This document shows, one piece after another, positions 4,482-36,904 of a DNA stretch of 64,000 nucleotides. This stretch comes from a virus (Duplodnaviria > Heunggongvirae > Uroviricota > Caudoviricetes), in IMG/VR virus record IMGVR_UViG_3300029258_003331, one strand, 5' to 3'. The notes below the pieces were generated by a model. The model saw only the letters and a list, made by a program, of their open reading frames with translations. It did no database searches and was not told the DNA's origin. Numbering within the stretch: the stretch's first letter is position 1; each line of letters starts with the position of its first letter. A program made the translations under genes and the position numbers.

Positions 4482-4500
4482 CATGTATAACCGGTTCCAA
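4482..4500 (-). promoter_or_regulatory. Conserved GGAACCGGTTATACATG element, class-II motif copy 1
   Basis: Gene-direction orientation, 54 nt upstream of the 4428 minus-strand start. Confidence 0.4.
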
Positions 4501-4560
4501 TCCAAAATGTCGGGAAAAATCCGAGAAATCGTCTAAAAACTTGCTCAAAAATCAACCCAG

Positions 4561-4569
4561 ATGGTATAA
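4561..4569 (+). promoter_or_regulatory. Extended -10 promoter TGGTATAAT
   Basis: TTGCTC-18nt-TGGTATAATGG, upstream of gene 4662. Confidence 0.5.
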
Positions 4570-4661
4570 TGGCAGCCGGCAGAAGAGAAGTCTCTTTGGT
4601 GGGGAAGATGGGTTTTCCGTTTGTCGGGTGCTTTTTTCAGCGTGCAGGGAAGGATGAGGAG

Positions 4662-5072
4662 ATGACACAGGCAGAGAAACTTGCGATTGACCTGGTTTAT
4701 CCGTTTTTGGCTTTGACGGATGAGTACGATATCAGGGACCGCGTCTTTTGGAGGTGCGGAGGGTGTTATGGATTGGTGACATTTTGCATCTTGTGTAACG
4801 ACCTCTTCGCGTGGGGGACTGCGGATTTGGTTGAGGTGACGGCGGAAAGCCTCCCTGAACTTCGCAAGGCTATTGGGGATGTTTTGGTGATACAGGAAGA
4901 CGCCGTGGACGAGGCGTTGGACCTCTTTTGTGCCAGGACGAGGAGAACACGTCCCCAGGGCGCAGCATATCCCAAAGACAAGAGCCTATGGGCGTTGTTT
5001 GACGCTTGTGGTCCCGAGCGCGCAGAGGGTGTGCCCGGGAACCCATACAAGCCAGGGGAATACCGGTGCTGA
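4662..5072 (+). CDS. Hypothetical protein (136 aa)
   Basis: The table ORF starts at 4569, but that ATG lies inside the TGGTATAATGG -10 box. The ATG at 4662 follows GGATGAGGAG RBS. Confidence 0.6.
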   Translation: MTQAEKLAIDLVYPFLALTDEYDIRDRVFWRCGGCYGLVTFCILCNDLFAWGTADLVEVTAESLPELRKAIGDVLVIQEDAVDEALDLFCARTRRTRPQGAAYPKDKSLWALFDACGPERAEGVPGNPYKPGEYRC

Positions 5073-5263
5073 AGAAGGAAGTATGCCAACAGTGCATCCA
5101 AGAACATCGCGGTGGGTGGGTCCATTTCGACGAGGAGCGTTGGAGGTTGGAGAGAACGGTATGCTGCAGGCTGGGCATGGTCATCAGCGGAAGAGGCGTT
5201 TCGGTCGACCAAGTGCCCCCTGATTGGTGCTGGTATAAAGGCAGTCACGGGGAAGAGATATAG
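5066..5263 (+). CDS. Possible small Cys-rich protein (65 aa; CQQC...CC)
   Basis: GTG start after AGGGGAA. Overlaps the previous stop. An alternative frame (5112..5402) cannot be excluded. Confidence 0.3.
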   Translation: MLKKEVCQQCIQEHRGGWVHFDEERWRLERTVCCRLGMVISGRGVSVDQVPPDWCWYKGSHGEEI

Positions 5264-5631
5264 TCTCGCGGTGTCAGCAGATAATGTCGTTTCCGACGAC
5301 GATGTGTACAAAGCGCGGGGCAGTATTCAGAACGCCCAAAACGCCAAGGCTGCGGCATGCGACCTGGGCTTCTCTGTGCCAATCTCGGGCAGCGACACCT
5401 GACAAGGCTCCGTGAATCTTCTTGATGATTCTGACGGTGGAATCGGTGGGCGTGAGCCGGACGAGTGGCTTGTGCATGTGTCCTCTTCTCCGTTTTCCTT
5501 TGCTAATTACCCGGAAAAATTGAATTCCAGAAAGCGGAATGGTCGATAAGGCTTCCGTGGCAATCATTATCGGACGCTGTGGAATGCTTATCGGACATTG
5601 TGAGACTTTACGCGCTGGAAGGAGAAATGGC

Positions 5632-5865
5632 ATGTATGACCGAATTCTAACTGGAATACGCCGTGCTTTAAGAGAGAACCTGAGAGAATATGACATGAAA
5701 AAGATGGAATTTGATCGACTTTTGGGCATGGAGGATTGGATGCTGGAGCGGGGAAACAGGGAGATGGCGGAGGCGTACAATCAGGCGGCTGGGGTTGTGG
5801 GCGAGGAGTTGGAAACGTTGATGGGACGCGTGGTGAGGCTGCGGGCATTACTCAAAGCCGCATAA
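5632..5865 (+). CDS. Hypothetical small protein (77 aa)
   Basis: GGAAGGAGAAATGGC then ATG. The table ORF extends to 5539, but the upstream part lacks an RBS. Confidence 0.5.
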   Translation: MYDRILTGIRRALRENLREYDMKKMEFDRLLGMEDWMLERGNREMAEAYNQAAGVVGEELETLMGRVVRLRALLKAA

Positions 5866-13083: not shown

Positions 13084-13313
13084 GTACCTTCCGAGAACTC
13101 CGAGAGGCGTTGAAAGCGCTGGATAGTGGCAGAGGTGACAAAATGGATTTTTACGACACGCAAGATGCGGCATTTTTACTGCGCAACTTGTGTGGGGAAC
13201 TGTCTGGTAAACTGTCCACCGTTTCGAGGACAATGGATACGCTAGCCAAGGACCTGAAAAAAGCCACCTGAAATTCACGGAACCAGCCTCTCCCAGCGGC
13301 TGTTCTCCTCACG

Positions 13314-13348
13314 TGATCCCTGCTCGCAAGAGTGGGGATCATTTTTTG
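13314..13348 (+). terminator. Rho-independent terminator
   Basis: TGATCCC-13nt loop-GGGATCA followed by TTTTTTG. Confidence 0.6.
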
Positions 13349-15547: not shown

Positions 15548-15566
15548 CGGGTTTCCTCCTTACTTT

Positions 15567-15585
15567 CCTTATAACCGGTCTCAAA
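15567..15585 (-). promoter_or_regulatory. Conserved TTTGAGACCGGTTATAAGG element, copy 2
   Basis: 20 nt upstream of the 15547 minus-strand start. Heads the 15.5 to 13.7 kb minus operon. Confidence 0.5.
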
Positions 15586-15643
15586 GAGCAAATGCCGTTG
15601 AATTCTGGATTTTTTTCATGTTTGCATCCCAAAATGGCTGATC

Positions 15644-15850: not shown

Positions 15851-15866
15851 AAATTCACTTTTTGTT

Positions 15867-15875
15867 GGTATAATC
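15867..15875 (+). promoter_or_regulatory. Extended -10 promoter TGGTATAAT
   Basis: Upstream of the 15922 small Cys-rich gene. Confidence 0.5.
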
Positions 15876-15921: not shown

Positions 15922-16107
15922 ATGAAGTGCGATACTTGTGAACATTACTCGGCACAACCCAGGGAGTATTGTGGCTTCGTGGAGGGCGTGTATTGCGACG
16001 GCTGCTATATTGAATACTTGTTGTGCATACGCCAGCAACTGGAGCACGAGGTGAGCCTGACTAAAGTTAACTCTGAAATGATGAGAGAAGGTGATGAGCG
16101 TCGCTAG
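15922..16107 (+). CDS. Small Cys-rich protein (61 aa; CDTC…C…CDGC)
   Basis: AAAGGGG RBS 5 nt before ATG. TTGGTATAAT promoter 45 nt upstream. Confidence 0.5.
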   Translation: MKCDTCEHYSAQPREYCGFVEGVYCDGCYIEYLLCIRQQLEHEVSLTKVNSEMMREGDERR

Positions 16108-16175
16108 GTGGATATGCGAAAAGTGCCGATGGAGAAGGACACCTTTCGAGAGCGCAACCAGACGAGTGGAGCGGG

Positions 16176-16409
16176 ATGAGGAACCCTGCTGGATTGAGTT
16201 GCCAAAAGGTGGAATCACTGCGGGCGGATGAAGCCGAACGTCAGGCTAAGAGAGAGGCTGCAAAACAAGTCACAGTCACGTTTCCGAAGGGGACGGTTAT
16301 CGAGGGAAGCCCGGCGGGAGTCGCTGAGACACTTTTGTTTTTGTTGGGGAAGCGCATCGGAAAAGAGATATCGGAAGTGTTGAGGACGGGGGATCTGTCC
16401 GAGGAATAA
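16176..16409 (+). CDS. Hypothetical protein (77 aa)
   Basis: GGAGCGGG then ATG. Followed by a strong hairpin terminator. Confidence 0.5.
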   Translation: MRNPAGLSCQKVESLRADEAERQAKREAAKQVTVTFPKGTVIEGSPAGVAETLLFLLGKRIGKEISEVLRTGDLSEE

Positions 16410-19180: not shown

Positions 19181-19182
19181 GT

Positions 19183-20488: not shown

Positions 20489-20509
20489 CCTGTATAACCG
20501 GTGCCAAAA
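20489..20509 (-). promoter_or_regulatory. Conserved TTTTGGCACCGGTTATACAGG element, copy 3
   Basis: 28 nt upstream of the 20461 minus-strand start. Confidence 0.5.
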
Positions 20510-20534
20510 TCAATACGCGGTCAAAATCTCGGAT

Positions 20535-21560
20535 TTATTTGTGGCAAACGTCGAAATAAACGGCTGAAGGGACGCCGTTGGAGGACGTTTTGTAGATTAT
20601 GAAACTGGCTTTAACCTTGTCTCCCACTTTGAGTTTCAGAGATCTTTGGTCACCGGAGTAGCCGCTAACTACTCGCTTTGCGAGTTTTTTAGCCTTTTTT
20701 ACTTTACTGCAACCCAACTTGACGCCGATGTAGTTACGCAGGCTGATACCGTTGATGACGACAGGTTTGTTTTTGCTTAGAGGATGATGGAAAGTGCCTA
20801 TGACGAAAAAAGTGTCAGTAACCCGACGCCAGAGAAGACGGTTCTTGATTGTTTTCAGGCTCTCTTTTCGCTTTTCCCAGTCGGCGCGAGTCGGGACTGG
20901 CATAGAGTGGACGCGGACATGTTCTTGGTCACTGCGTTCATTGATACGCACGAATTGAGGCATAGTCAGCGCTTTTTCTTTCTTGAGAGGCAGGTCCGTC
21001 ACCTTTCCGTACTTAGACGCCTCAGCAGCCTCTTTCTTGGCAGCGGTAGCGAGTTTGGTCCTCACCGCCTCCCATTCGCTTTGAGACACTAGCACACCTT
21101 CCTCCACCCAGCCACGCACTTCAAAATCAGGGCTACAGTAAGCAACACGCCGAAAACCGCCCTCCGCAGCCAGAATAGTGACCCCCGGACCATAGCCAGT
21201 GATTTCAGCCAAGGTCCCGGAAAGCCTGCCGCTCTTCATGAGTTTGGTGGCTTCCTTGACGTAATGGGTAGGCGTCGTTTCCTCGGGTGGGGTGCGTTCT
21301 TCGGGTGCCTGGTCGGTGATGGATTCTTTGGGCAGGTAGCCAGTGAGGGTGAGGTCGTAGCCGCTGTATTTGATGATGGAGAGGTCACCGACGTTTCCTT
21401 TGACGGCGACCTTGGTGCCTTTGTGGAGTCGGCAGATGCGGTTTTCAGGGGTGGCGTTGGGACCTGCGTGGACGAATGTTGGCGTGATGACATAGGCGTC
21501 CCCAGCGTGAGTCACCGAATAGCCAAAGAGCACGAGCAAAAGAGCCAATTTGCGGTACAT
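20535..21560 (-). CDS. Secreted protein with N-terminal signal peptide (341 aa)
   Basis: GGGAGGAAGTGATAT then ATG at 21560. N-terminus MYRKLALLLVLFGYSVTHA is signal-peptide-like. The table ORF extends to 21851, but that extension is S/T/P-rich and is overlapped by the next gene. Confidence 0.75.
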   Translation of the reverse strand: MYRKLALLLVLFGYSVTHAGDAYVITPTFVHAGPNATPENRICRLHKGTKVAVKGNVGDLSIIKYSGYDLTLTGYLPKESITDQAPEERTPPEETTPTHYVKEATKLMKSGRLSGTLAEITGYGPGVTILAAEGGFRRVAYCSPDFEVRGWVEEGVLVSQSEWEAVRTKLATAAKKEAAEASKYGKVTDLPLKKEKALTMPQFVRINERSDQEHVRVHSMPVPTRADWEKRKESLKTIKNRLLWRRVTDTFFVIGTFHHPLSKNKPVVINGISLRNYIGVKLGCSKVKKAKKLAKRVVSGYSGDQRSLKLKVGDKVKASFIIYKTSSNGVPSAVYFDVCHK

Positions 21561-21867: not shown

Positions 21868-21883
21868 TGGTTTTCCTTTCTGC

Positions 21884-21903
21884 CTGTATAACCGGTCTCA
21901 AAT
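21884..21903 (-). promoter_or_regulatory. Conserved TTTGAGACCGGTTATACAGG element, copy 4
   Basis: 17 nt upstream of the 21867 minus-strand start. Confidence 0.5.
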
Positions 21904-21999
21904 CGTAGGTGACGTTAAAATCCCATATTTTCTTGATATTTTCGTGTAGATGAGCGCGTCCCAATATGCCGTTTCCCCTCCTTCGTGGCGCTTGCTGCC

Positions 22000-22332: not shown

Positions 22333-22450
22333 GGACGGTCTCCTTTCCATTTTCCTCTAATCAGGGTCGAGCGTAGAACGTCCCTGAAAAGTCATATTTT
22401 CTTGATATTCTGGTACGGGTGAGTGAACGTAAGCCCTTGGAGGAAATGAG

Positions 22451-23535: not shown

Positions 23536-26500
23536 ATGAGGTGCGTATCCACGACTGCCGAAGCCTTCGTTAAACATTCTGCTGAAGAGGCGGCAGACAA
23601 GCCCACCGTCAACGATTATCTTCAGACCATCTTGTACGACGCAGCCAAGAGTGGTTCTTTGTCCGACCTCAAGAACGCGATGACTGATTTCAAACGCGAC
23701 CATGGCGTTTCACTTGGCATGATGGTCAATGGTCTCTATGGACCGAACGAGAAATCGACGTTAGCCCACGCCGTGCTGCAGGACGATAACACACGCGAGG
23801 TAGTCAAAAAACTCGATTATCTTCTCAAGGAAGGCTACGACCCAAGCATGGTGAGTCTCGAATCGTCTGAGCGCCCGAGCCTATTGCAGCGAGCCGAACA
23901 AGGTGCCGATACGCTCCGGGCGCTCTTGGAGAAGCACGGCTACGTCTTTGGGACAGGCAAGGGAGAGGGTGCCGCTGGTTACGGTAAGATAAAAGAGAAG
24001 TTCGAGTACGGACCATTCACGATTGTCAATGCTGGTCTAAATGATGACCACATGGCTAGGGCTCTTTCTGAGTTAAAGCCTGTCATTGCCAAGATGAAGA
24101 AACTCGGCTTCGGCAATGTATTGTATGGTCCAATAATTGTCGTCTCTAGCAAGCTTGACGGGTTCAGCGTTTACAACGACCAGGCGAAGAAGTACAAGAG
24201 CATGACGGCGGGTGCCTACTATGACCAGTCGAGGGACATCGTGGTGGTGAATGCGGACAGCATAAATCCTACGTTGTTTGCACATGAACTGGGGCACAGA
24301 CATTGGTACAAGAAGATGGGCTCGACGCAGCGGGCGATGTGGGAGGGGGACTTTGAGAACCGGGCGACGAGAGTGAGTAAGCAGCAGGTGGACATGGTTT
24401 ATGCGTTGTTCAAGAAGGCTGTTCCGTTCGAGAAAGACGCGCTAGGGTTTGAGTATCCGAATTGGACAGAGTTCGGATACAAGAGATTTCTGGCTGCGCT
24501 TAGAAGGGGGCAGGCGAAGCACGCGCTACTAGACGTGTACGATTTGATAGTGAGGAGCGCCCACGGTTTTTCAGGCGGCAACATCAAGACGGCTCGCAGG
24601 AAGTACATCGGCTACCTAGTCGAAGAGGGATCATTTGGCGGTTCTTACTGGGATGCCAAGTGGATTCCGCCTGTGGCTGAGGTATTAGCCGGCGAGCAAG
24701 ACCCGGAGATTCTTCCCAGCAGGATGCGTGGTCGACCGAGGGAAGACTATGAATTCATGAAAAAATACGTCCACAAGCCTTTCGGGCGTCTTAAGGATGC
24801 GGCGAGGAAATCAATCGGCGCGACACTTGTTGAACTGGAGAGCACGACGGAATACGGGAAAAACAATACGCGGGAAGATTACGCTGAGGCATTTGCGCAT
24901 TACATCACGAACAAACCGATGCCTGAGCGTCTGGTATATTTGTTCAGAAAAGTTAACGGGCTCAAGGTGGCGAGTGAGGAGGATCTTATGGATATGCAGG
25001 TTATTGCGACGGAGTTGAGTCTTCTTGCTGATACTGTTGCGTGCGAGGCGGGAATCGACGACCAGGAAGAGATTGGCTTTCTGGACCAAAGCAGCATCGC
25101 CGAGAGGGTTGCTGCTGCCGTTTTGGACGTTCCGACGCATAAGGATTTTGCCAAAGTCGTGCGTGAATACGGGAACGGGTCAAAATGGTCTCACGCTGCC
25201 ATCTTTCCTGGCAAAACACACCGCGCGAAGAGACCCAAAGCGGTTTCCAGAAAGCCACTTGGGAAGCCGTTAGATGAAGCCCTTGCCGAGATTGGTGTCC
25301 AAGAAATTCCGTATGCTGAGGTGCGGGACGACGCGCTCGTTGTGACCGTGATTGGCAACCGGGGAGAGAAAGACACGTATGTTTTTACCAAGGAGCCCTA
25401 TGTCAATGTTTTCCGGGTCGAGCCTCAGAAGCGCAATGAGACAATGGAAGAACGGTCACTGGTTTTGAAAGAGAAACTCCATGAACTGGGGTTGAAGTAC
25501 TTGGGAGAGAGACACGGGAAGGCTGGCATGCAGATGGGACTCCCGGATAGTGCCCGGCGTGTTGGGGTGGGTTCCCGTGATTTCATGGCGAACTACTTGC
25601 TGGTAGATGGGAGAGACCAGCGCTGGAACGAGCATGATTTCTGGTCAATCAAGCAGCGAGGCGGCGACGAAACACTCCTTAAGAAACTCGTGGATTGGGT
25701 CAAGCGCGGTCCTACAATGCGACAAGTGAGACAGCGCGCAAGGGAGACCGGAGAGCGCACAACTGGTCTCATGAGGCTTTCTTCCGAGATGACTGTAGAG
25801 GAGAGGGTTGCCCAGGCGATTTTGGCGACGGCTCCGAACATCATCAATCTCCAGGATGTCAGAGAGCAACGCCGGCGTGAGGAACTAGAAAAGCGCTACG
25901 AGAAATCCAAGGAAGAAAAGGAAGAAAGGGAAAAGAAACAAAAGGATGAGATGGAAGATTTCGTGGGGACTATGAAATCCGCACTTCCTAGATTCAGCGC
26001 ATGGGTTGAGAAATTCGCGCCAGTCAAAAAGGCAGGCATCAAGAGGGCACATGCGACGAGAGACGGCTGGACGGTAAAGGTGCTGATAGACCTGGAGGGA
26101 GATGACTACGTTTCGTTTGACGTCTACAAGTACGCCCACCACGACAATGCTGCGCTCTACAATTCGGTTGCTTTCGTGGGCGGCAGGAAGACTAACATCT
26201 TCAAGTCGAAGTTTGTGACGCTGGACGAGACAAAGGATGCTGCCGACCCGAAGGTGGTACTGCCGGCTCGTCGCCTGGAGAAGATATTTGGCGAGCAGTC
26301 CGGGGAAGAAGACAGGATACGACCAAAGGATTTCATCGCGCTCCTTGAAAGACGTCTGGGGATGAAATATCACGCGAAGGACATGTATAGCATCCCCCTG
26401 AACGAGGAAGAGGATGTGCGGTTGTTGCTCTATCGGTGGGTTATCATGCGCACACCCGGGTGGGGCGTCAATGGCATCTACCAGCGTCACAAGCGCATTG

Positions 26501-26592
26501 ATAGGGGAGAGACGGTGAGCATCCCTGAAACCAAAGAGGGCATCAGGCAGGTTGAGAAGATGGTTGCTGATCTTAAGCGGAAATATGCATAG
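23536..26592 (+). CDS. Large multidomain protein with HExxH zinc-metallopeptidase-like motif (1018 aa)
   Basis: GAGAGAGA RBS. FAHELGHRHW plus downstream EDYAEAFAHY, a possible third ligand. K/E-rich segment near the C-terminus. May be a virion or polyvalent protein. Confidence 0.9.
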   Translation: MRCVSTTAEAFVKHSAEEAADKPTVNDYLQTILYDAAKSGSLSDLKNAMTDFKRDHGVSLGMMVNGLYGPNEKSTLAHAVLQDDNTREVVKKLDYLLKEGYDPSMVSLESSERPSLLQRAEQGADTLRALLEKHGYVFGTGKGEGAAGYGKIKEKFEYGPFTIVNAGLNDDHMARALSELKPVIAKMKKLGFGNVLYGPIIVVSSKLDGFSVYNDQAKKYKSMTAGAYYDQSRDIVVVNADSINPTLFAHELGHRHWYKKMGSTQRAMWEGDFENRATRVSKQQVDMVYALFKKAVPFEKDALGFEYPNWTEFGYKRFLAALRRGQAKHALLDVYDLIVRSAHGFSGGNIKTARRKYIGYLVEEGSFGGSYWDAKWIPPVAEVLAGEQDPEILPSRMRGRPREDYEFMKKYVHKPFGRLKDAARKSIGATLVELESTTEYGKNNTREDYAEAFAHYITNKPMPERLVYLFRKVNGLKVASEEDLMDMQVIATELSLLADTVACEAGIDDQEEIGFLDQSSIAERVAAAVLDVPTHKDFAKVVREYGNGSKWSHAAIFPGKTHRAKRPKAVSRKPLGKPLDEALAEIGVQEIPYAEVRDDALVVTVIGNRGEKDTYVFTKEPYVNVFRVEPQKRNETMEERSLVLKEKLHELGLKYLGERHGKAGMQMGLPDSARRVGVGSRDFMANYLLVDGRDQRWNEHDFWSIKQRGGDETLLKKLVDWVKRGPTMRQVRQRARETGERTTGLMRLSSEMTVEERVAQAILATAPNIINLQDVREQRRREELEKRYEKSKEEKEEREKKQKDEMEDFVGTMKSALPRFSAWVEKFAPVKKAGIKRAHATRDGWTVKVLIDLEGDDYVSFDVYKYAHHDNAALYNSVAFVGGRKTNIFKSKFVTLDETKDAADPKVVLPARRLEKIFGEQSGEEDRIRPKDFIALLERRLGMKYHAKDMYSIPLNEEEDVRLLLYRWVIMRTPGWGVNGIYQRHKRIDRGETVSIPETKEGIRQVEKMVADLKRKYA

Positions 26593-27720: not shown

Positions 27721-27729
27721 TGGTATAAT
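27721..27729 (+). promoter_or_regulatory. Extended -10 promoter TGGTATAATGG
   Basis: 34 nt upstream of ATG 27763. Confidence 0.5.
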
Positions 27730-30433: not shown

Positions 30434-31075
30434 ATGGGTCATTGTTCCCCGTCAAAGTTGCCGATGCTAGCCGAATGCCCGTGCTTTCAGTCAACAGAGG
30501 CGGGCTTGGCGGCAGAAAGAGGGTCGATACAACACGCAGTAATTGAGGAACACTTTCTAGGCAACGAGCCATCATGGAAGTCCCTTTGGCCATCTGAAAA
30601 AAAGAAAGTGCGATGGGCGATTCGATGGATTGAGAAGAATACCTCCAGCCAACGCCAGGTCGAGGTAGAGGTGCGCCCCTCAAGATCTGATATTGCGGTT
30701 GTGGGACGCGGATTCATTGACGTTTTGGATACCAGCGACGGAATTCACATCGTTGACTACAAATCCGGCGGCGAGGCACACTATCTGCCTCAACTCGCGG
30801 TCTATGGTCTGATTATGATGCGCAAGATGGGAACATCTGAGGCGCGCCTGACTTTGCTTTACGGGAAAACCGAGGAAATTGTCAGTGAAGTCCTTTCCAA
30901 TGCAGAAGCGGAGGAGATAGTTCTGCCGATTGTCGCTGCTGTAAAAAATCCCGAGAAAAAGCCCTGTCTCTGCAAATACTGCTCGTGGTGTTTAAGAGTG
31001 AGGACATGCAGTGCCCTCCCTGCAAGCGTTCGACGTGCCTTTGCGGAATCTACTGAGAGGAAAAAACCAGAATAA
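30434..31075 (+). CDS. Cas4/RecB-like PD-(D/E)xK nuclease with C-terminal Cys cluster (213 aa)
   Basis: GFIDVLD…IVDYKSG (motifs II/III), QLAVYGLIM (QxxxY) and CLCKYCSWCLRVRTC. Resembles Cas4/DUF83-family phage exonucleases. Confidence 0.8.
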   Translation: MGHCSPSKLPMLAECPCFQSTEAGLAAERGSIQHAVIEEHFLGNEPSWKSLWPSEKKKVRWAIRWIEKNTSSQRQVEVEVRPSRSDIAVVGRGFIDVLDTSDGIHIVDYKSGGEAHYLPQLAVYGLIMMRKMGTSEARLTLLYGKTEEIVSEVLSNAEAEEIVLPIVAAVKNPEKKPCLCKYCSWCLRVRTCSALPASVRRAFAESTERKKPE

Positions 31076-31100
31076 ACTGAGAAAATCGGGTCATTTGTAT

Positions 31101-31120
31101 TTTGGGACCGGTTACACAGG
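31101..31120 (+). promoter_or_regulatory. Conserved TTTGGGACCGGTTACACAGG element, copy 5
   Basis: 27 nt upstream of ATG 31147. Confidence 0.45.
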
Positions 31121-31146: not shown

Positions 31147-31698
31147 ATGGCTGACTACGTTAAAGCGCCGGCGTGCCAGATGCTCCAAGTTCACTGTGTG
31201 TGTTGCGGACGGCTTCTTTTGGATGCTGACAGCGTCGCGCAAGGAATCGGACCTGAATGTCGGGGAGGGCTCGAACTTTTGGAGCCGGATATCCGCACGA
31301 TTGCCAATGAGCATGTCTACCACGCGGCTGAGGCAGCAATGGCAGGGAAGGCTCAGGAAGTTCTTGAGTACGCTGACCTGGTGGAAAAACTGGACGAAAA
31401 TCTCGTTGCTCTGGCTAATCGCATGCGCCGTCGTTTCGTTAAGGCTCGGGACCGCCAAGAATACGAGATTACGATTGAGGAGGACGGGGACCGGCTTCTC
31501 GTCGATACTCCCTTTCGGCGCGGTGAAAAGGAAGAGTTCATTCAGGCGTGGAGGGACATACCTGGACGCCGTTTTGATTCTGAGCGCCGGATGAACAGCG
31601 TCCCGAGCAAGGAACGAGTTGCCTTGTGGGCGCTCCTGCGTAGGTTTTTTCCTGGGAAGTGGGGTATGGGACCGAAGGGTCTATTTCGCGTGGTGTGA
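31147..31698 (+). CDS. Hypothetical protein with CxxxxxHCVCC motif (183 aa)
   Basis: AGAAAGGAGACTGAAA then ATG. GGGACCGGTTACACAGG motif 27 nt upstream. Confidence 0.7.
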   Translation: MADYVKAPACQMLQVHCVCCGRLLLDADSVAQGIGPECRGGLELLEPDIRTIANEHVYHAAEAAMAGKAQEVLEYADLVEKLDENLVALANRMRRRFVKARDRQEYEITIEEDGDRLLVDTPFRRGEKEEFIQAWRDIPGRRFDSERRMNSVPSKERVALWALLRRFFPGKWGMGPKGLFRVV

Positions 31699-31699
31699 G

Positions 31700-32197
31700 A
31701 TGGAACTCAGAGAATATTTATCATCGGTGGTGGACATGTGTCGCCGGAACATGACAAGGACCGAGTACCTGTACGTGTGCATGGAAGATTTTGTCCTTCA
31801 GCACGGGATTGTCTTCAGTGCCGAGGGACTCCCAGAGGGTTTTGAACCCGCTGAGCCTCGCAGGTGTTTTGCTAACGCCTTTGAACTACTTGATGACAAG
31901 TCCCTTATCTATTGCGAGGGCTACGGGCTATGCGAGGGGCTGATCCCGATGCACCACGCTTGGGTCGCAACTGAAGAGGGAACGGTGATAGACGTAACCT
32001 GGGGTGCCATGTTGCCCAAGCGGCGCGCGTTTTACATGGGCGTCCCGTTTCGCACGGAGTTCGTGATTGAGGTGGTTTTGACGCGCGAGAAGTATGGCGT
32101 GATCGATAACTGGGAAAACGGTTGGCCACTGTTGACCGGTCGTCTCAACAAACGAGAGTTCCTAGACGACAGGCTGGGAGAACATCATGGACAATGA
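31700..32197 (+). CDS. Hypothetical protein (165 aa)
   Basis: Starts 2 nt after the upstream stop. Confidence 0.7.
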   Translation: MELREYLSSVVDMCRRNMTRTEYLYVCMEDFVLQHGIVFSAEGLPEGFEPAEPRRCFANAFELLDDKSLIYCEGYGLCEGLIPMHHAWVATEEGTVIDVTWGAMLPKRRAFYMGVPFRTEFVIEVVLTREKYGVIDNWENGWPLLTGRLNKREFLDDRLGEHHGQ

Positions 32198-32513
32198 GAC
32201 AGCAAAGACAATGAACGCGATTCGGGAAATGAGCGCCGAAGTAATCAAACAAGTCCGCAGCACGGGTGTTCCAGAGATCGGGCTGCTGCGACGAATCGGG
32301 AAGGCGTATTGGCGTTTGGCTGACAATCTCTTGAGTGCTGGCGTTGGTTTGGACGGCAATCCTGCGCAGAGCGTCCACGAACTGGCAGACATGCTCGCGA
32401 ACGAAGGGCAGCCGACATGCGATGACAAACCGTCTTGTCGCAAGATGGCATGCGATGACGAGTCGCTGCCATTGGCTATCCGAGAGCGATTGCGTAACCG
32501 GTTCGGACGCTAG
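32187..32513 (+). CDS. Hypothetical protein (108 aa)
   Basis: Overlaps the upstream gene by 11 nt. Confidence 0.6.
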   Translation: MDNETAKTMNAIREMSAEVIKQVRSTGVPEIGLLRRIGKAYWRLADNLLSAGVGLDGNPAQSVHELADMLANEGQPTCDDKPSCRKMACDDESLPLAIRERLRNRFGR

Positions 32514-32515
32514 GC

Positions 32516-32938
32516 ATGAGGAACGCCAGGAGAGTAATTCTGATCATTGGCACCGTGTTGACGTTTGTATTGGGGACGAACAGCACCGTTGCGAAAGAGA
32601 AGCGTCGTGCTGTCTATGTGACTGTGGTGGCGACGGCTTATTGCCCATGCGAAAAGTGCTGCGGAGAAAACGCTGACGGATTGACGGCTACAGGCACCGA
32701 TGCGTATAAGGCTGGTGTTGCGGTTGACCCGGGGACGTTTCCAGAGGGTTTTCCACTAGGAACACACTTTGACATCCCTGGTTATAATCGCGGACCAAAC
32801 GGAAATGGCTCGTGGATACGGGCGGATGATACGGGTCGGGCGATTCAAGGGACGCAAATTGACGTGCGTTTTAGAACACACCAGGAGGCGAAGGAATGGG
32901 GGCGCAGAAAGATCAAAGTCCGAGTGTGGCTGAGATAG
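32516..32938 (+). CDS. Secreted 3D-domain (MltA/YabE-like) putative peptidoglycan hydrolase (140 aa)
   Basis: Signal-peptide-like N-terminus. TAYCPCEKCCG…VAVDP…FPLGT…ADDTG…QIDV reproduces the three conserved Asp residues of the 3D domain. Confidence 0.75.
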   Translation: MRNARRVILIIGTVLTFVLGTNSTVAKEKRRAVYVTVVATAYCPCEKCCGENADGLTATGTDAYKAGVAVDPGTFPEGFPLGTHFDIPGYNRGPNGNGSWIRADDTGRAIQGTQIDVRFRTHQEAKEWGRRKIKVRVWLR

Positions 32939-33095
32939 AAGAGGGCACCCGATTTAGAGAGACGAGTGCTGATGTTATTTTCGTGGTGAAAGGGAAACAC
33001 TACAACAAGGGCTGGTGGTGGTGCGAAGCCGAAGCCGAGGACGAGAAGACGGGCATGTGGGCTTATTCGGAGCCCTACATTCTGAGGAACAGGTT

Positions 33096-33335
33096 ATGAG
33101 GGACGAGTTGGCTTTGGTGATTATCGAGTACGAAACTGGCGAGGTGGGCGTGCAGGCGGTGGCGACCAACGCGGACGGCGAGGAGTCTTTCGATAACTGT
33201 CACAAGGAAGAAAAAGGCAGAAAGCCGCGAATGACCCTCGTGAAACTGAGATATCCTGACCCAGAAGGGGTGATTGTGGAGGCGAAAACCAAGATCTTGT
33301 CTGGTTTAGTCCAGAAATTCGAAAAAAGTAACTGA
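33096..33335 (+). CDS. Hypothetical small protein (79 aa)
   Basis: ATG overlapping the upstream table ORF stop. The low-confidence table ORF 32896..33099 overlaps the 3D gene and was not adopted. Confidence 0.45.
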   Translation: MRDELALVIIEYETGEVGVQAVATNADGEESFDNCHKEEKGRKPRMTLVKLRYPDPEGVIVEAKTKILSGLVQKFEKSN

Positions 33336-33344
33336 ATCTGCGCC

Positions 33345-33362
33345 GCGAGACCGGTTATAGGA
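33345..33362 (+). promoter_or_regulatory. Conserved CGCGAGACCGGTTATAGG element, copy 6
   Basis: 29 nt upstream of ATG 33390 (HExxH-vWA gene). Confidence 0.5.
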
Positions 33363-33389
33363 AGTAGAGGACTTTGCCGGGGCGATAAT

Positions 33390-35252
33390 ATGAGCGCCAC
33401 AACGACGAAACACAGCAAGAAGAATGCTCGCTATGTTGAGCGGCAAAAACAACTCAAAGCCGTTCAGGAGGTCGAGCGTGCCCTCAAAGTAATCATCCCA
33501 CACATGTGCCGGGACGGTAGGGTAACCATCAAGCATGTGGCTCCCGGCAATCCCCCTTGTGCCAATGTGAAAACCCGCACCATTTTCATGCCGCCACTCA
33601 ACGGTCTACAGGATCTTATGTTGGCACGGGCTTACTACTATCACGAGGTACTCCACATTGCTCACAGCCATCTCTCGGAGTCTCAGTGGGAGGAAATCCG
33701 TGAGAACAAGGCTCTGAAGACAATTTTGAATTCTCTGGATGATTACCGAATTGAAGCGAAGGGTGCAAGAAAATACGAAGGCTGCCGGGTGGTTTTCAAC
33801 TGGAGCCGGGACTACCACAACAAGAAAATTGCAGGACAAGTGCAACGTGGGGAAACCGTTGAGATTCCACTTTGGGAAGCCGCATGCGCCATGGAGATAA
33901 TGTGCAAGGGGGCGCGGTTGGCATGGCGCGCTGAGGGGCTCGCGGCAGAGTACATCAGCGCTGCCTATGAGACATACCAAGAGGTGCGTGGAGCAGAATC
34001 CACAGGGGATTGCCTGGTGATCGCCAGAAAGATTTACGACATCATTAAGGCAATAAAGAAAGAGCAGCAAGGACAAGGGGAACAAGGGGAACAAAAGGGA
34101 CAACAAGAGGGACAACAAGAGGGACAACAAGAGGGACAACAAGAGGGACAACAAGAGGGACAACAAGAGGGACAACAAGGGAAGGAGACAGCAACAGCGG
34201 ACCCCAGGGAAGGCGAGAGTACAGACAACGAAACAAGTGGACAGGTCGAAAACACGAAGGATGATCGAACAGACGAAGAGGTTGCTGGTGCGCTTGAGAA
34301 GGAGGCAGAAGGCGAGGACCTGGGAGAATTCCTGCGGCGCGAACTTGAAGCGCAAATCGACGAAGTTCCCGAGGCAGATCGTCGCTATCGCAGTATTAGG
34401 GAAAACGACGCATACGAGGTGCCCGATAGCACCAGTGTGGCTCAGTTCAACGCAGTCCGCGAAGAAGTGGCAAACAGCATTATGGGTATCAGTCGAGCAC
34501 TGGACCAGGCTCTCCGCACACTTAGTCGCTCTCGTAAGGAACAATACATGCGACGCGGAAAACTTGACATGCGGCGGCTTGTGGATGCGGCAGCCGGATT
34601 GGACAAACGGGTCTTTTACCAGGTTCGAGACGGTGAGAAATTGGATACAGCGGTAGTCATTATTGTGGACGAAAGCGCTTCGATGTCTGCTTCACGATAC
34701 GCCATGCAGCGGCTTGTTGCGGCGTTGGGGGAGACCCTGAACAAACTGGGGGTTCGCTTTGAGATTGTCGGAAGTACCACGAAATACTTTGGCGGCGAAA
34801 TTCCCAGAAAGTTACTAATTCCGGGCTATGATCGAACAAACCCTCTCAGGTTGCGTATTTATAAGACCTTCACCGAGAGATGGGAAGCCGTCAAAACACG
34901 CATAGTTCGCATTTCAGCCTTCAAGCACAATGTGGACTGTGAGGCAATTGAGATGGCTGTCGCGCGCTTGTCTACGTGCCGAGAGCGCCGTAGGATCATT
35001 TTCAGTTTGAGCGATGGTTGTCCCGAAGCAGGACATAACAACGAGCAGGAAATGGGTCAGTTTCTCAAGTACGTTTGTGAGCGCAGTCGAAGAGCGGGAG
35101 TCGAGGTATATGGGTTCGGTGTGCGCACAATAGAACCGAGGAAGTTTTACGGGAGGGATTATTTTGTCTACCTGAAAGATGAGCGACAAATGGGACAAGA
35201 TTTCTTCCGTCGGTTTGCGGACATCATCACAAGAGGTCGTTTCAGGGCGTAG
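33390..35252 (+). CDS. Putative metallopeptidase (HExxH) – vWA-domain protein, CobT/DUF2201-like (620 aa)
   Basis: GAGACCGGTTATAGG motif 29 nt upstream. YYYHEVLHIAHSH in the N-domain. (QEGQ)n low-complexity linker. VVIIVDESASMSAS MIDAS motif in the C-terminal vWA fold. Confidence 0.9.
   Translation: MSATTTKHSKKNARYVERQKQLKAVQEVERALKVIIPHMCRDGRVTIKHVAPGNPPCANVKTRTIFMPPLNGLQDLMLARAYYYHEVLHIAHSHLSESQWEEIRENKALKTILNSLDDYRIEAKGARKYEGCRVVFNWSRDYHNKKIAGQVQRGETVEIPLWEAACAMEIMCKGARLAWRAEGLAAEYISAAYETYQEVRGAESTGDCLVIARKIYDIIKAIKKEQQGQGEQGEQKGQQEGQQEGQQEGQQEGQQEGQQEGQQGKETATADPREGESTDNETSGQVENTKDDRTDEEVAGALEKEAEGEDLGEFLRRELEAQIDEVPEADRRYRSIRENDAYEVPDSTSVAQFNAVREEVANSIMGISRALDQALRTLSRSRKEQYMRRGKLDMRRLVDAAAGLDKRVFYQVRDGEKLDTAVVIIVDESASMSASRYAMQRLVAALGETLNKLGVRFEIVGSTTKYFGGEIPRKLLIPGYDRTNPLRLRIYKTFTERWEAVKTRIVRISAFKHNVDCEAIEMAVARLSTCRERRRIIFSLSDGCPEAGHNNEQEMGQFLKYVCERSRRAGVEVYGFGVRTIEPRKFYGRDYFVYLKDERQMGQDFFRRFADIITRGRFRA
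34064..34181 (+). repeat. 12-bp coding tandem repeat (GGGACAACAAGA) x7, preceded by degenerate copies
   Basis: Encodes the (QEGQ)n linker of the HExxH-vWA protein. Confidence 0.85.
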
Positions 35253-35258
35253 GAGTAC

Positions 35259-35828
35259 ATGATGGCGCTTAACAAGATATGCCACTACAGAGGAGGCAGC
35301 AGCAACAAGACATATCTCGTCTATGTCATCAAAGTGACTGACGGTGAATATCGAGTTGGTGGTAAGTGGGGAAGGACTGGAACTGCCCTCCACCAACAGA
35401 TTAAGCACGTCACGCAGACGTTCCAGGAAGCGCAAGACAAGGCTCTGCAATTGTTCCGCAGCAAGATAAAAAAAGGTTATCAGAACATCGAAGATCCCGA
35501 CTACGATGGTCCGCTAACATTTGCGCGTATGTCGGAATACCTGGAACATGATATTGAGGCAGAGCAGGATAGCGACGAAACGGATAACAATGAAGCGGTA
35601 GTAGACGGGGCAGTTCTATCTGGCAGGAAACCTGTGCCCGTACCCCAGAATGGTGAGGATATAGTTGTCATGTGTCTTGACAACACGGGGATGGAGGACA
35701 ACTTCAGCAGCGGCGTTACCTACGTGGTCGAGAATGAGATTGACGAGGAGATGTTTGTGGTCTCGGATAAGCGCGGGAGGGAAATCGAGTGTTATCGTGA
35801 CCGTTTTCGCGTGGTGGTGGAAGAATGA
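35259..35828 (+). CDS. WGR-domain protein (189 aa)
   Basis: KTYLVYVIKVTDGEYRVGGKWGRTG…ALQLFRSKIKKGY matches the WGR (Trp-Gly-Arg) domain consensus. Acidic C-terminal half. Confidence 0.8.
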   Translation: MMALNKICHYRGGSSNKTYLVYVIKVTDGEYRVGGKWGRTGTALHQQIKHVTQTFQEAQDKALQLFRSKIKKGYQNIEDPDYDGPLTFARMSEYLEHDIEAEQDSDETDNNEAVVDGAVLSGRKPVPVPQNGEDIVVMCLDNTGMEDNFSSGVTYVVENEIDEEMFVVSDKRGREIECYRDRFRVVVEE

Positions 35829-36214
35829 GCACAGGTGCAAGAAAACTCAAAGAAATTGCCCGCCGGAGACATAAGAAGCGCGAAGCCACGAACCTGGCAG
35901 AGCGATGTGGTTTCGAGTCTAATTGTCCTGACTGCCGGAATTGGGCGAAGAGTGAATCGGGCGAGCATTGCCGCGCGTACTCTGCGGGCGAAAGGAGACC
36001 CGTTGGCTGCCCTCATTTTGAAAGAAATATGGTAGATAGACGAGTGCGCTGCATCAACAACGAAGGCATCGCGGAAAGGTTCACTGTGGGAGCGGTCTAC
36101 GATGCCGCTTTTTACTATGATGACGATGAAGAGTATTTGCGAGTAACCGATAACCAGGGTGTTCCGGTTGATTGCGATTGGGAACAGTTTGAAGCAGCAG
36201 GGGAGCCGAAATGA
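35825..36214 (+). CDS. Hypothetical Cys-rich protein (129 aa)
   Basis: ATGA overlap. C-terminal module RCINNEGIAERFTVGAVYDA…D is repeated in the next gene. Confidence 0.7.
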   Translation: MSTGARKLKEIARRRHKKREATNLAERCGFESNCPDCRNWAKSESGEHCRAYSAGERRPVGCPHFERNMVDRRVRCINNEGIAERFTVGAVYDAAFYYDDDEEYLRVTDNQGVPVDCDWEQFEAAGEPK

Positions 36215-36864
36215 AGTTCATGCGATGTACCGCGCTTACGACCGAAGGCGAGTTTACAGTAGGTCGTATCTACGCGGTAAAAGATGAGATGGAAACAGAC
36301 GCGAAAACAGACGATAGGTTCATGATTGTAGATGATAACGACGAGCGTTTGAAGATGAAATACAGTGACCGGTGTTTCGAGAGGGTGATGACCGTCTATG
36401 GGGTCTGGGTGTGCGAGGATGGCAACTTTGACGCTGGAGAGGTGTTGTCCATAACGGGCGTAGATGGACAGTTTTTGGAGGTTGCCGGATACGGATATTT
36501 TGGCGGTGATTGCATTGAACTGCTTGACGCCACGAATCTGCGACCGGGGATTGTTGTCTGCGACGAAGAGAATGGGCAATGGCGTAAGGTGAGTCGCGTA
36601 GATGAGGATTTCAACGTCTCTATCGACGGGAATCCAGAGGAATTTAGGTCGGTTGCCGGATTCTCACTTGCGGTAGTAGACGGTGCGGTAGTGGATTTTC
36701 CTGTTTTGTACTGCATCGACGCGAACGGAAAGCCGGGAGAACTTACCGTGGGAGAGTCGTATCTTCCGGTGGCAAGAGAGGGTGCTATCGTGACATTGAA
36801 AAATGATGCTGGCGAGGAAAAAGGCTACGGCATGGACAGGTTTTCAAAAAAGAGAAAAAAATAA
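36211..36864 (+). CDS. Hypothetical protein with 3-4 repeats of a small RC-x4-EG-x-FTVG-x-Y module (217 aa)
   Basis: ATGA overlap. Internal repeats are visible in the protein sequence. Confidence 0.75.
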   Translation: MKFMRCTALTTEGEFTVGRIYAVKDEMETDAKTDDRFMIVDDNDERLKMKYSDRCFERVMTVYGVWVCEDGNFDAGEVLSITGVDGQFLEVAGYGYFGGDCIELLDATNLRPGIVVCDEENGQWRKVSRVDEDFNVSIDGNPEEFRSVAGFSLAVVDGAVVDFPVLYCIDANGKPGELTVGESYLPVAREGAIVTLKNDAGEEKGYGMDRFSKKRKK

Positions 36865-36887
36865 GATTTTTGGGCGGCAAATGGAGA

Positions 36888-36904
36888 ATGAGACCGGTTA
36901 TAGA
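36888..36904 (+). promoter_or_regulatory. Conserved ATGAGACCGGTTATAGA element, copy 7
   Basis: 31 nt upstream of ATG 36934 (AAA+ ATPase). Confidence 0.5.

Follow-up and report, generated by a model that had tools for sequence, protein, structure and literature searches.

A conserved, gene-oriented intergenic element as a candidate second promoter class of an uncultured huge phage

Copies of the element and the genes behind them

The window, the whole 64,000-nucleotide stretch of tailed-phage DNA analysed here, carries 90 ORFs, and about 85% of the ORFs have no family. An earlier note, made from the letters alone, had listed seven copies of a 20-nt element upstream of start codons on both strands. 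The core ACCGGTTA occurs eight times on the two strands of the window, compared with a mean of 0.93 and a maximum of 3 in shuffled sequence. Seven of these eight occurrences are the listed sites, with the common consensus kTTGrGACCGGTTATAsAGG; the remaining one, at 32495 on the minus strand, lies within a gene and has no flanking similarity. The invariant part of the element is GACCGGTTA(T/C)A. The literal 14-mer ACCGGTTATASAGG matched exactly at 2 sites only, and the full 20-mer matched 4 sites when up to 3 mismatches were allowed. A 22-nt weight matrix with a reporting threshold of 8 bits recovered the seven copies at 21.2-31.9 bits (21-32 bits versus 11 or less for all else). The next best match in the window reached 11.2 bits, within the range of the shuffle maxima (9.2-16.3 bits). 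Re-mapped in the 20-nt register TTTGAGACCGGTTATACAGG, the coordinates given earlier proved right to within 1 nt.

Intergenic sequence makes up 9% of the window and holds all seven sites, each of them co-oriented with its downstream gene; this arrangement has a naive probability of about 4e-10. The observation of the earlier note is confirmed, including the placement in gene direction just upstream of a ribosome-binding site (7/7), with a separate Shine-Dalgarno sequence after each copy. The distance to the start codon, which had been called fixed, is variable (15-53 nt).

On the minus strand, the copy at 4482..4540 (28.5 bits) has the core ATTGGAACCGGTTATACATG at 4482-4501, with an A/T tract and a CCGACATT box upstream. 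The 47-aa ORF downstream (4285-4428) has its ATG 53 nt away, and a rightward TGGTATAAT at 4562 stands back to back with the copy. The minus-strand copy at 15566..15624 (core TTTGAGACCGGTTATAAGGA, register 15566-15585; 27.3 bits) is 18 nt before the ATG at 15547 and heads a leftward operon running from 15547 to 13733; a rightward TGGTATAAAAT is found about 60 nt from it. The copy at 20489..20547, also on the minus strand (core TTTGGCACCGGTTATACAGG, register 20489-20508; 30.3 bits), is 27 nt before the ATG at 20461 of a 79-aa ORF, in a 73-nt gap with co-directional genes on either side. The perfect 20-mer TTTGAGACCGGTTATACAGG, in register 21883-21902, belongs to the minus-strand copy at 21883..21941 (31.9 bits), 15 nt before the ATG at 21867 of a 101-aa CxxC protein that is followed by a 341-aa ORF. 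The upstream part of this copy is the reverse complement of a third motif (see below), ATATTTTCTTGATA.

On the plus strand, the copy at 31062..31120 (core TTTGGGACCGGTTACACAGG, register 31101-31120; 30.0 bits) lies 26 nt before the ATG at 31147 of a DUF6011 protein and heads the cluster 31147-33335, which includes a 3D-domain protein. The copy at 33305..33363 (core CGCGAGACCGGTTATAGGAA, register 33344-33363; 21.2 bits) is 26 nt before the ATG at 33390 of a CobT-like vWA protein, and its upstream part overlaps the end of the preceding gene. The copy at 36848..36906 (core AATGAGACCGGTTATAGATG, register 36887-36906; 28.1 bits) is 27 nt before the ATG at 36934 of a MoxR/CobS-type AAA_5 ATPase. For the three plus-strand copies and the minus-strand copy at 20489, the flanking genes are co-directional and no terminator precedes the copy; a promoter is not strictly required at these four sites.

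An eighth copy (24.2 bits) was found in flanking DNA 3 kb left of the window (L111), before a leftward gene. The minus-strand stretch 22353..22410, about 20 nt before the ATG at 22332, scored below the reporting threshold. It has a block ATATCAAGAAAATATG..TTTT in common with the copy at 21883, and its core GCTCGACCCTGATTAGAGGA keeps G..C.G.TTA.A; it could tentatively be counted as a ninth, diverged copy. The weight-matrix scan of the window and flank gave no copy from 38 to 73 kb, the region of packaging and structural genes.

Upstream conservation, companion motifs and relatives

Each copy forms a unit some 60 bp long, whose conservation extends about 45 nt upstream and stops near the predicted start site. 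In the gene direction it comprises an A-rich tract, a GAtTTT patch, a C.GCA..T box, the nearly invariant TTGrG-ACCGGT block and the -10-like TATAsA. The core holds about 25 bits and the region between -45 and -9 about 20 bits. The C.GCA..T box, only moderately conserved (5-6 of 8 copies), occupies a -35-like position about 17 bp upstream of the AT-rich hexamer. Its spacing to (A/T)(C/G)CGGTTA is 17-18 nt both in the window and in the relative L105. Conservation is highest in the would-be spacer and extended -10, an unusual arrangement among promoters of the sigma70 family. L105 has four copies with about 72 nt in common, ending a few nt past the predicted start; this span is the extent of a putative UP element, -35, -10 and +1.

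The element shows no dyad symmetry beyond chance. The consensus RNA fold of the copies gave 0 pairs and the Rfam search of the window 0 matches, which speaks against a known structured RNA family. These results bear on an RNA-level role, in which the element would serve RNA processing, translational enhancement or the attachment of an RNA-binding protein within the 5' untranslated region. Such a role would suit sites that always lie shortly upstream of a ribosome-binding site in the sense orientation, and gene-oriented repeats beside start codons have a precedent in the Start-Associated Sequences of Cluster K mycobacteriophages, whose distance from the start codon is 3-7 bp and which include the Shine-Dalgarno sequence (PMC3203893). 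The present element, with its 15-53 nt gap and separate Shine-Dalgarno sequence, does not resemble them. An RNA-level role would also leave the upstream A-tracts and the -35-position box unexplained unless transcription started far upstream, where nothing promoter-like is conserved. We regard it as very improbable.

Two further motif classes occur in the same genome. The first, the host-type extended -10 motif TGGTATAATG, is invariant; it occurs in 8 exact copies, where about 0.24 would be expected for the 8-mer, and 7 of the 8 are intergenic and co-oriented. On the leftward strand TGGTATAAT occurs at 20112 and 50581 only, the latter antisense within an ORF. For the leftward units at 4.4, 15.5 and 21.9 kb and the L111 unit, the element is the sole conserved candidate promoter. 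The other class is the third motif, ATATTTTYTTDATA, a T-run class that is kept between lineages and precedes structural modules.

The gene order 3D, small ORF, element, CobT, WGR, X, element, AAA_5, Y, DUF6744 is kept in relatives. The gaps upstream of both the CobT-like and the MoxR-AAA gene were available in five lineages (the window, L105, L109, L151 and L152), and in all five one genome-specific block is common to the two gaps. L105, L109, L151 and L152 thus have their own variants in the gap orthologous to that at 33305; the gap orthologous to that at 36848 holds variants in these four and in the sixth lineage, L115, from which only the AAA_5 gap was available and where related sequence is present. 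Identity between elements is 0.45-0.95 within a genome, compared with 0.32-0.45 between genomes. Differing hosts, and not a phage factor, could in principle account for the lineage differences. At the protein level the related phages are 40-60% identical, and their samples are siblings within a single project (Ga018043x), which suggests that their hosts are probably related.

Promoter types and candidate readers

A housekeeping sigma70/sigmaA -10 element (TAnnnT) would carry A-11 and T-7. In the only TA register the hexamers read TATACA (three times), TATAAG, TACACA, TATAGG and TATAGA, so that T at -7 was found in 0 of 7 copies; the hexamers of the relatives (TAAGTC, TATGTA, TAAGTA, TATAGA and TAGAGA) are likewise without T-7. 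Such a promoter would also have a TTGACA-like -35 element 16-18 bp upstream or a full TGn extended -10; here the -35 position holds the C.GCA..T box, and GGT rather than TGn precedes the hexamer. In a consensus scan for sigma70-type sites none fell on the elements, and two nearby 9/12 matches to the sigma70 consensus (31121 and 36833) are at chance level. A plain sigma70/sigmaA site was rejected on these grounds. With no T-7 and the invariant part at the extended -10 and spacer, the main host holoenzyme is unlikely to act unaided. A sigma54 promoter, defined by an invariant GG at -24 and GC at -12 (GG-N10-GC), was also rejected: of the 7 window copies only 3 have GG at that position, the distance from there to TTGrG is N12 (N11 in L105), and the fourth L105 copy has no GC and reads ATTCAT.

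A host alternative sigma factor of the ECF or group-3 type might read the element through an extended -10 that is rich in GC (GCCGATAA or CGTT, for example); the lineage differences would then be those of the hosts. The bipartite geometry with the 16-18 bp spacing of the sigma70 family would agree with this, and the CGGTTA/CCGTT-type core recalls ECF and sigma28 -10 elements. No phage sigma factor was recognised among the window ORFs, which would also fit. However, the elements differ strongly between phages whose hosts are probably related, and an AAC-type -35 is not conserved (4 of 7 copies at best). It is also uncommon for a lytic phage regulon to depend on a stress sigma factor. We consider a host factor of this kind improbable.

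Neither a sigma factor nor an RNA polymerase was recognised when the 90 window ORFs were searched with Pfam, PHROGs and NCBIfam, and there was none among the precomputed Pfam calls for the 10-kb flanks (about 84 kb in total). A single-subunit RNA polymerase (PF00940-type) was likewise found neither in the window nor in the 10-kb flanks; at least about 50 kb of the genome lies beyond, the longest contig being 132,554 bp. The proposed reader is therefore hypothetical. No homologues of MotA, AsiA, gp28 or gp55 were detected, and no repressor, integrase or other lysogeny gene was recognised among the window ORFs.

The sigma-region-4-like HTH ORF to which the earlier note had drawn attention (about 50.2-50.8 kb) is real and conserved in the clade. 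Its product has two sigma-region-4-like HTH units and is weakly sigma-like: Sigma70_r4 scored E=0.015, PRK12522 E=0.011 and region 4 of SigD in the PDB E=1.1, and phrog_1740 was matched by 4 of 5 orthologues (best E=4.6e-4). Its first recognition helix is invariant across lineages with differing elements. The adjoining ORF (49596-50294) encodes the KOW protein of the earlier note, and its NusG fold was confirmed by the family profile (NusG 2lq8 E=8.5e-7, RfaH 5e-4), by an AlphaFold2 model with pLDDT 84.6 and by Foldseek, whose top matches were NusG and RfaH with probability 1.0. The two genes precede the packaging genes, the NusG-like gene heads a long structural-gene block, and a different conserved motif lies just downstream of them. 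From this gene position and motif, the two proteins more likely serve the third motif than the element.

The NusG-fold protein raises the possibility that the element works in the transcribed leader as a loading or pause site like ops, where this protein would be recruited to protect RNA polymerase against termination. The ops elements that RfaH recognises are 12 nt long, orientation-specific and located in operon leaders (PMC7819879), and a specialised NusG paralogue is encoded in this window as well; fast-evolving paralogues of this kind would fit lineage-specific sites. The pause consensus (G-10, Y-1, G+1), however, is present in only 2 of the 7 copies, and a separate promoter would have to fit upstream in gaps of 54-73 nt, which are too short for it. 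The element precedes short units (0.15-3.5 kb) rather than long operons, and the NusG-like gene belongs, by position, with the structural genes and their different motif. An ops-like site is accordingly a very unlikely explanation.

An asymmetric operator of the stoperator type would have a monomeric phage protein, such as the two-HTH protein, binding the 14-20-bp core in one orientation and repressing initiation, blocking elongation or directionally activating a weak host promoter. The stoperators of L5-type mycobacteriophages are sites of 13 bp present in more than 20 copies per genome of about 50 kb, in temperate phages with a recognisable immunity repressor; they are found within promoters as well as in short intergenic gaps (PMC9283540). 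The element resembles them in being asymmetric, lineage-specific and located in short intergenic gaps with an orientation that follows transcription. The four sites between co-directional genes without terminators agree with an operator, genome-specific variants would be expected from a binding protein co-evolving with its site, and a conserved two-HTH protein exists. Against this, conservation runs through about 45 nt of upstream sequence with promoter-like geometry, over at least 60 bp in all (72 nt in L105), and there are only 8-9 copies in about 84 kb. The leftward units would be left without any promoter, the phage has no recognised lysogeny gene in the window, and the first recognition helix of the HTH protein does not change although the elements of the lineages differ. 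We consider an operator doubtful, though less so than the other alternatives above.

Proposed regulon and comparison with known systems

We favor the interpretation, with a probability of roughly 0.6, that the element is a second, phage-specific promoter class of this uncultured huge phage. This promoter reading is based on the orientation and position of every copy, the additional information upstream with promoter-like geometry, the contrast with an invariant host-type class (TGGTATAATG) that this phage also carries, and the presence in relatives of genome-specific variants at orthologous positions. On the same evidence, the preference of the earlier note for a phage-specific promoter over a plain sigma70 site is the best-supported reading, the initiation itself being predicted. 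Transcription would start about 6-9 nt after the TATAsA hexamer, giving leaders of about 10-45 nt, Shine-Dalgarno sequence included. A lineage-specific factor would direct RNA polymerase to the sites. This factor would most likely be phage-encoded: a divergent sigma factor, a protein that appropriates or activates sigma, or a phage RNA polymerase whose gene lies beyond the DNA seen. The sites would switch on a regulon of non-structural genes, made up of four or five leftward units of small genes and three rightward clusters (DUF6011/3D, CobT-like vWA and MoxR-AAA/DUF6744). Of the middle or late timing suggested earlier, middle fits better, and the regulon is probably a 'middle' temporal class; it cannot be called late with 0 copies in the structural half.

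Most likely the element is a new instance of an ordinary kind of phage signal. It is doubtful that a specificity factor of an undescribed kind reads it, factor and site co-evolving in each lineage; in that case a fast-evolving orphan protein might direct the host core or holoenzyme. The grounds for this reading are that about 84 kb hold no recognisable sigma factor or RNA polymerase, that T-7 is missing from the hexamer and that the invariant bases occupy the spacer and extended -10. Alternatively, the two-HTH protein, perhaps with the NusG-fold protein, might bind the C.GCA..T and ACCGGTTA boxes as a monomer. A factor of a new type would inform how huge phages take over their hosts and would provide an orthogonal pair of promoter and factor; an ordinary phage sigma encoded outside the window would make the finding routine. 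Huge phages seen only in metagenomes are almost unannotated, and the three clean motif classes (host-type extended -10, lineage-specific element, and lineage-conserved T-run class before structural modules) offer a first regulatory map. This map would indicate which orphan genes are co-regulated with the CobT-like vWA and MoxR-AAA pair, and the factor could be sought by comparing, over the whole clade, which protein variants go with which motif variants.

Several known systems resemble the proposed promoter class. In the halovirus HF2, intergenic repeats of 29-58 bp showed promoter activity in reporter assays, and as with the element, whole conserved units head viral gene clusters (PMC8707807). 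The HF2 repeats are archaeal (TATA/BRE), and their classes have no sequence relation to the element.

The element may resemble promoters of single-subunit RNA polymerases of the T7 type in its roughly 20 bp of contiguous asymmetric conservation, a TATA just before the presumed start, and a variant for each lineage that would co-evolve with its polymerase. TTGrGACCGGTTATA followed by s/A-G-G resembles the T7-like form of about 20-23 bp from -17 to +6; the L105 copies have no TATA, the upstream boxes are extra, and an upstream box with A-tracts is not a T7-type feature. Middle promoters of T4 combine a MotA box with a sigma70 -10 and are used with AsiA, and SPO1 has a sigma cascade of gp28 and gp33/34. 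In these phages, as proposed here, a factor made by the phage redirects the host core or holoenzyme and so defines the temporal class, one of three overall, which serves DNA-metabolism and non-structural genes. The conserved block of T4 replaces the -35, whereas that of the element abuts the -10-like hexamer. The SPO1 sigma cascade is mentioned in PMC13401047.

The promoters of the phiEco32 gp36 and phage 7-11 sigma factors, with the motif tAATGTAtA, were found by comparing intergenic regions (PMC4331800). These phages have a recognisable sigma factor and an anti-sigma factor, whereas the present phage has a weakly sigma-like two-HTH protein with no link to the motif. The conserved block of the element is also longer (14-16 invariant nt plus the upstream box), and its TA hexamer is without T-7. 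As in phiEco32 and SPO1, a low-copy conserved motif distinct from the host promoters stands before a class of genes. The likeness to phiEco32 and 7-11 lies in the outline: a short phage-specific motif in low copy (6-10), intergenic and before non-early genes, in a genome that also has host-sigma promoters, and diverging between related phages (PMC4331800).

Sites and anatomy of the class-2 element

The element described in the earlier note, a gene-oriented intergenic unit of about 60 bp that we call class 2, is one of three signal classes in this genome. The 8-mer ACCGGTTA occurs eight times on both strands of the window, against 0.93 expected, and seven of these copies are the sites reported earlier. 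In a 20-nt register they lie at 4482-4501, 15566-15585, 20489-20508 and 21883-21902 on the minus strand and at 31101-31120, 33344-33363 and 36887-36906 on the plus strand; the earlier coordinates were right to within 1 nt in this register. The literal form of the earlier consensus is exact at 21883 only; what all seven share without change is GACCGGTTA(T/C)A. The eighth 8-mer copy, at 32495 on the minus strand, is intragenic and has no other likeness to the seven. A weight matrix derived from these sites gave them 21-32 bits; the best score elsewhere in the 128 kb of strand scanned was 11 bits, which is within the range of the shuffle maxima. The family is therefore sharply delimited. A similar density of the element inside coding regions had been named as evidence against a promoter role, and the matrix scan revealed no weaker copies within genes.

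A gene map of the window was made by codon-usage and ribosome-binding-site scoring, and about 9% of the window is intergenic on this map. The upstream placement claimed for the element was borne out, as all seven sites are intergenic and oriented toward the next gene. The distance from element to start codon is 15-53 nt, and a separate Shine-Dalgarno sequence lies between them. Counting one copy of 24 bits on the locus to the left of the window (L111), eight copies range from -3 kb to 37 kb, and none was found in the packaging and structural region at 38-73 kb. Of the six or seven transcription units read leftward, five start with class 2, and for these no other conserved candidate promoter is seen. 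Ahead of the leftward gene at 22332 there may be a ninth, weak copy. The gap at 5478-5631 contains TTATCGGAC twice as a direct repeat about 24 nt apart, and a weak class-2 relative at 5631-5652 on the minus strand scores no better than noise (10.7 bits). Scanning IMG/VR for the exact 14-mer gave single chance matches and no relatives, and the motif string was found in the literature within primers only.

When the copies were aligned on the core, an A-rich tract appeared near -40, a GAtTTT patch near -25 and, 18 nt before the A of ACCGG, a C.GCA..T box, with TTGrG immediately preceding ACCGGT. Corrected for small sample size, conservation amounts to about 25 bits in the core and about 20 bits from -45 to -9. 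TATAsA is the sole AT-rich hexamer, and conservation ends 2-3 nt beyond it. The 17-18 bp between the C.GCA..T box and this hexamer correspond to sigma70-family promoter geometry. Despite this geometry, the element does not look housekeeping-like in sequence: T at -7 is absent from all seven copies, the -35 position does not resemble TTGACA, and the bases ahead of the hexamer are GGT, not TGn.

Several specific readings were tried and rejected. The spacing is wrong for sigma54, whose key bases are also not invariant, for ECF sigma factors (GGAAC..CGTT) and for sigma28 (TAAA-N15-GCCGATAA). With TTGAGA taken as a -35 element, the DNA 17 bp downstream holds the ribosome-binding site only and no -10. 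Read on the reverse complement, TGTATAAC, the element would make an antisense promoter with C at -7 and without a proper TGn, and its transcripts would run into the upstream genes. Class 2 fails at least one defining feature each of sigma70 promoters, sigma54 promoters, stoperators, ops sites and Start-Associated Sequences, and it cannot be filed under any specific named family. Its comparison with T7-type promoters is mixed, the core being similar in form but accompanied by further conserved boxes upstream.

We consider it probable (roughly 0.6) that class 2 is a promoter class needing a lineage-specific, probably phage-encoded, specificity determinant. Transcription would start a few nucleotides past TATAsA, and the class would drive a non-structural, 'middle'-type regulon. 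Recognition by an alternative sigma factor of the host seems improbable to us. A monomeric binder with two domains, acting at an asymmetric operator or a stoperator-like site, would agree with the orientation of the copies, which fits the rule described for L5-type sites (PMC9283540); no dyad symmetry above chance was found in the element. Such a site does not explain a conserved context of 60-72 nt, and it would leave the leftward units without any other promoter, so that we regard an operator as unlikely, if less so than a host sigma site. An element acting in the RNA, in the 5' untranslated region like the Cluster K Start-Associated Sequences, is very unlikely: its distance to the start codon is wrong for that family, the Shine-Dalgarno sequence is a separate one downstream, and the copies have no consensus structure (0 pairs in RNAalifold). 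Rfam gave no matches in the window.

Counterparts in related lineages

The window encodes the large terminase (52987-54828), the portal protein (55484-57499), a CobT-like vWA protein (33390-35252) and a MoxR/CobS-type AAA_5 ATPase (36934-38169), and about 85% of its 90 ORFs could not be assigned to any family in Pfam, PHROGs or NCBIfam. An identical terminase is present on contigs up to 132.5 kb, and relatives with 50-60% identity are on contigs of 80-550 kb; among database records, an uncultured 485-kb phage (33% identity) and Tunturiibacter phage Tunturi_5 (28%) come closest. The genome therefore belongs to an uncultured huge-phage clade. Single-protein searches for relatives found none in IMG/VR, INPHARED DNA, INPHARED by tblastn with the AAA protein, or GTDB genomes. 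In IMG/VR an alignment-based search found nothing beyond AAA proteins of 28% identity or less; in GTDB it found one Lentisphaeria MAG contig, whose TerL is 32% identical and is at most a weak hint of the host. TerL has more than 600 relatives, and in many of them (P0006, P0025, P0039 and others) it is about 1,000-1,060 aa long with LAGLIDADG or intein domains; the window terminase is without intein. Single window ORFs match the ribosomal protein L7/L12 C-terminal domain (3.8e-9), which would be noteworthy in a huge phage, a Cas4-like PD-(D/E)XK nuclease, endonuclease III/MutY, an SPFH/Band 7 domain and a VVA0879 CxxC protein. Behind the portal gene, a 786-aa ORF (57496-59856, plus strand) carries a long KPEA/KPE low-complexity repeat and has a 760-aa variant in one public assembly.

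Five further lineages were collected through CobT-like homologues and their contigs, together with one metagenome scan with an AAA_5 alignment; one of them, L105, has a contig of 338 kb. The gene order 3D, small ORF, CobT, WGR, X, AAA_5, Y, DUF6744 is kept, with protein identities of 31-64%. Wherever a lineage offers both gaps, one genome-specific block occurs ahead of the CobT-like gene and again ahead of the AAA_5 gene. This block is GAGACCGGTTATAG in the window, about 72 nt ending in TTGCATGCGGTTAAGTCTTTTGAAGG in L105 (4 copies in 22 kb), GATACCGTTCTGTGnrTAGrG in L109 (3 copies), CTyCGGTTAwGTArTTGGA in L151 and GGATTTTTGsGGACTC..TGCAATATGyCTGTAGArAG in L152; L115, represented by its AAA_5 gap only, has AGACTGGTTACC. 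For the 44-nt blocks, identity is 0.45-0.95 within genomes and no more than 0.32-0.45 between them. Common to the lineages are a G/T-rich triplet, then TA and four bases (never TAnnnT), then purines, with the C.GCA..T box, equally spaced, as a further feature common to the window and L105. The position, and presumably the function, are thus conserved and the sequence is reset in each lineage, a pattern characteristic of a cis element that co-evolves with a factor encoded by its own genome. Class 3, unlike class 2, is near-constant between the window and the relative L147.

Two further motif classes and the candidate factors

The other two motif families turned up on reading all intergenic regions of the window. 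Class 1 is the invariant motif TGGTATAATG; its 9-mer TGGTATAAT has eight exact copies, and the 8-mer GGTATAAT has a shuffle mean of 0.24. Seven of the eight exact copies are intergenic and co-oriented, at 4562-4570, 15866-15874, 27721-27729, 39703-39711, 43548-43556 and 45904-45912 on the plus strand and at 20104-20112 on the minus strand. Weaker copies lie at about 850, 3408, 13369 and 15645, and two more lie on the left-flank locus L111 (5335 and 7020). No conserved -35 element was found for class 1, and these sites are presumably extended -10 promoters for the main sigma factor of the host. The exact 9-mer at 50573-50581 on the minus strand, antisense within the sigma-like ORF, could be an antisense promoter or chance. 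The copy at 39703 ends 2 nt ahead of the ATG called at 39714; this leaves two options, a near-leaderless transcript or a true start codon downstream of the called one.

Class 3, ATATTTTYTTDATA, has five copies against 0 expected, all intergenic and on the plus strand, at 16470-16483, 21925-21938, 22394-22407, 50771-50784 and 61411-61424. The reverse complement of the second is the upstream part of the class-2 copy at 21883-21902. Outside the window, copies lie on the flank locus L113 (14160), about 1.7 kb beyond the window end, and in L147 (3105 and 7775). Class 3 lies ahead of the units that start at 16.6 and 22.4 kb as well as of the packaging and structural modules. It is near-identical in the window and L147 (about 60% TerL identity), including the orthologous gap behind the sigma-like gene, where T-rich versions occur in five lineages. 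Class 3 is a candidate late promoter. Strong terminator-like hairpins lie at 16428-16465, 13313-13342, 3359-3381 and 23500-23517; the first has a 17-bp stem, with a shorter stem detected on the minus strand too, and is located behind the rightward 15979-16409 unit and ahead of a class-3 motif.

At usual thresholds, Pfam, PHROGs and NCBIfam identified no sigma factor or RNA polymerase among the 90 window ORFs, nor did the precomputed annotation of the flanks. A 1018-aa ORF (23536-26592, plus strand) was rejected as an RNA polymerase; it is zincin-like with an HELGH motif, has no DxDGD motif and is otherwise unannotated. Two transcription-type proteins adjoin each other about 2.5 kb ahead of the terminase, in the unit headed by the class-1 copy at 45904-45912. 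The first, the KOW protein mentioned in the earlier note, is encoded at 49596-50294 on the plus strand, has a KOW motif and a weak UpxY match, and is found with 40% identity at the same location in relatives. It has 141 relatives among cluster representatives, and its family profile matched NusG (8.5e-7) and RfaH (5e-4) over the full length. AlphaFold2 was uninformative with the single sequence (pLDDT 34) and gave pLDDT 84.6 with the alignment; the best Foldseek PDB matches of the latter model are NusG and RfaH (probability 1.0). With its NGN and KOW domains, this protein is a NusG paralogue encoded by the phage, and none of the papers searched mentions both huge phages and NusG. That class 2 is an ops-like site for such a paralogue is very doubtful, given that the pause consensus is missing in five of the seven copies and there is no space for a separate promoter.

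The second protein is the ORF noted earlier as sigma-region-4-like at 50.3-50.8 kb. It runs from about 50212 to 50766 on the plus strand (listed as 50155-50766); the public annotation, in which it has 112 aa and starts at 50428, probably makes it too short. It has two tandem HTH units resembling sigma region 4. Its neighbours are the NusG-like gene on one side and an 84-89-aa gene on the other, and the terminase follows about 2.2 kb further on; four relatives encode it with 49-60% identity, invariably at the same place, and a homologue is near the terminase of the 485-kb phage LR745208. The ORF 50155-50766 alone had no PDB sequence match, and four of five orthologues weakly match phage sigma-factor PHROGs (best E=4.6e-4). 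The ORF and its weak sigma likeness were thus confirmed, but the NusG-like and sigma-like pair is a better candidate for class 3, the late genes, than for class 2, because it heads the packaging and structural block, because a class-3-type motif lies directly downstream in all five lineages, and because the first recognition helix of the sigma-like ORF is invariant. Late activators sit ahead of terS in other phages, and the arrangement of the pair resembles theirs. The factor recognising class 2 may be an orphan early protein, or may be encoded in the at least 50 kb beyond the DNA examined.

Comparison with known systems

The finding would gain interest if the factor recognising class 2 proved to be of a new type. 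The T4 middle promoters and the SPO1 cascade are phage-specific promoter classes, and class 2 resembles both. The phages phiEco32 and 7-11 have the promoter motif tAATGTAtA, which depends on a phage sigma factor (PMC4331800), and class 2 would be the same in kind, a phage-specific promoter class. It also resembles the intergenic repeats of halovirus HF2, which bear promoters (PMC8707807).
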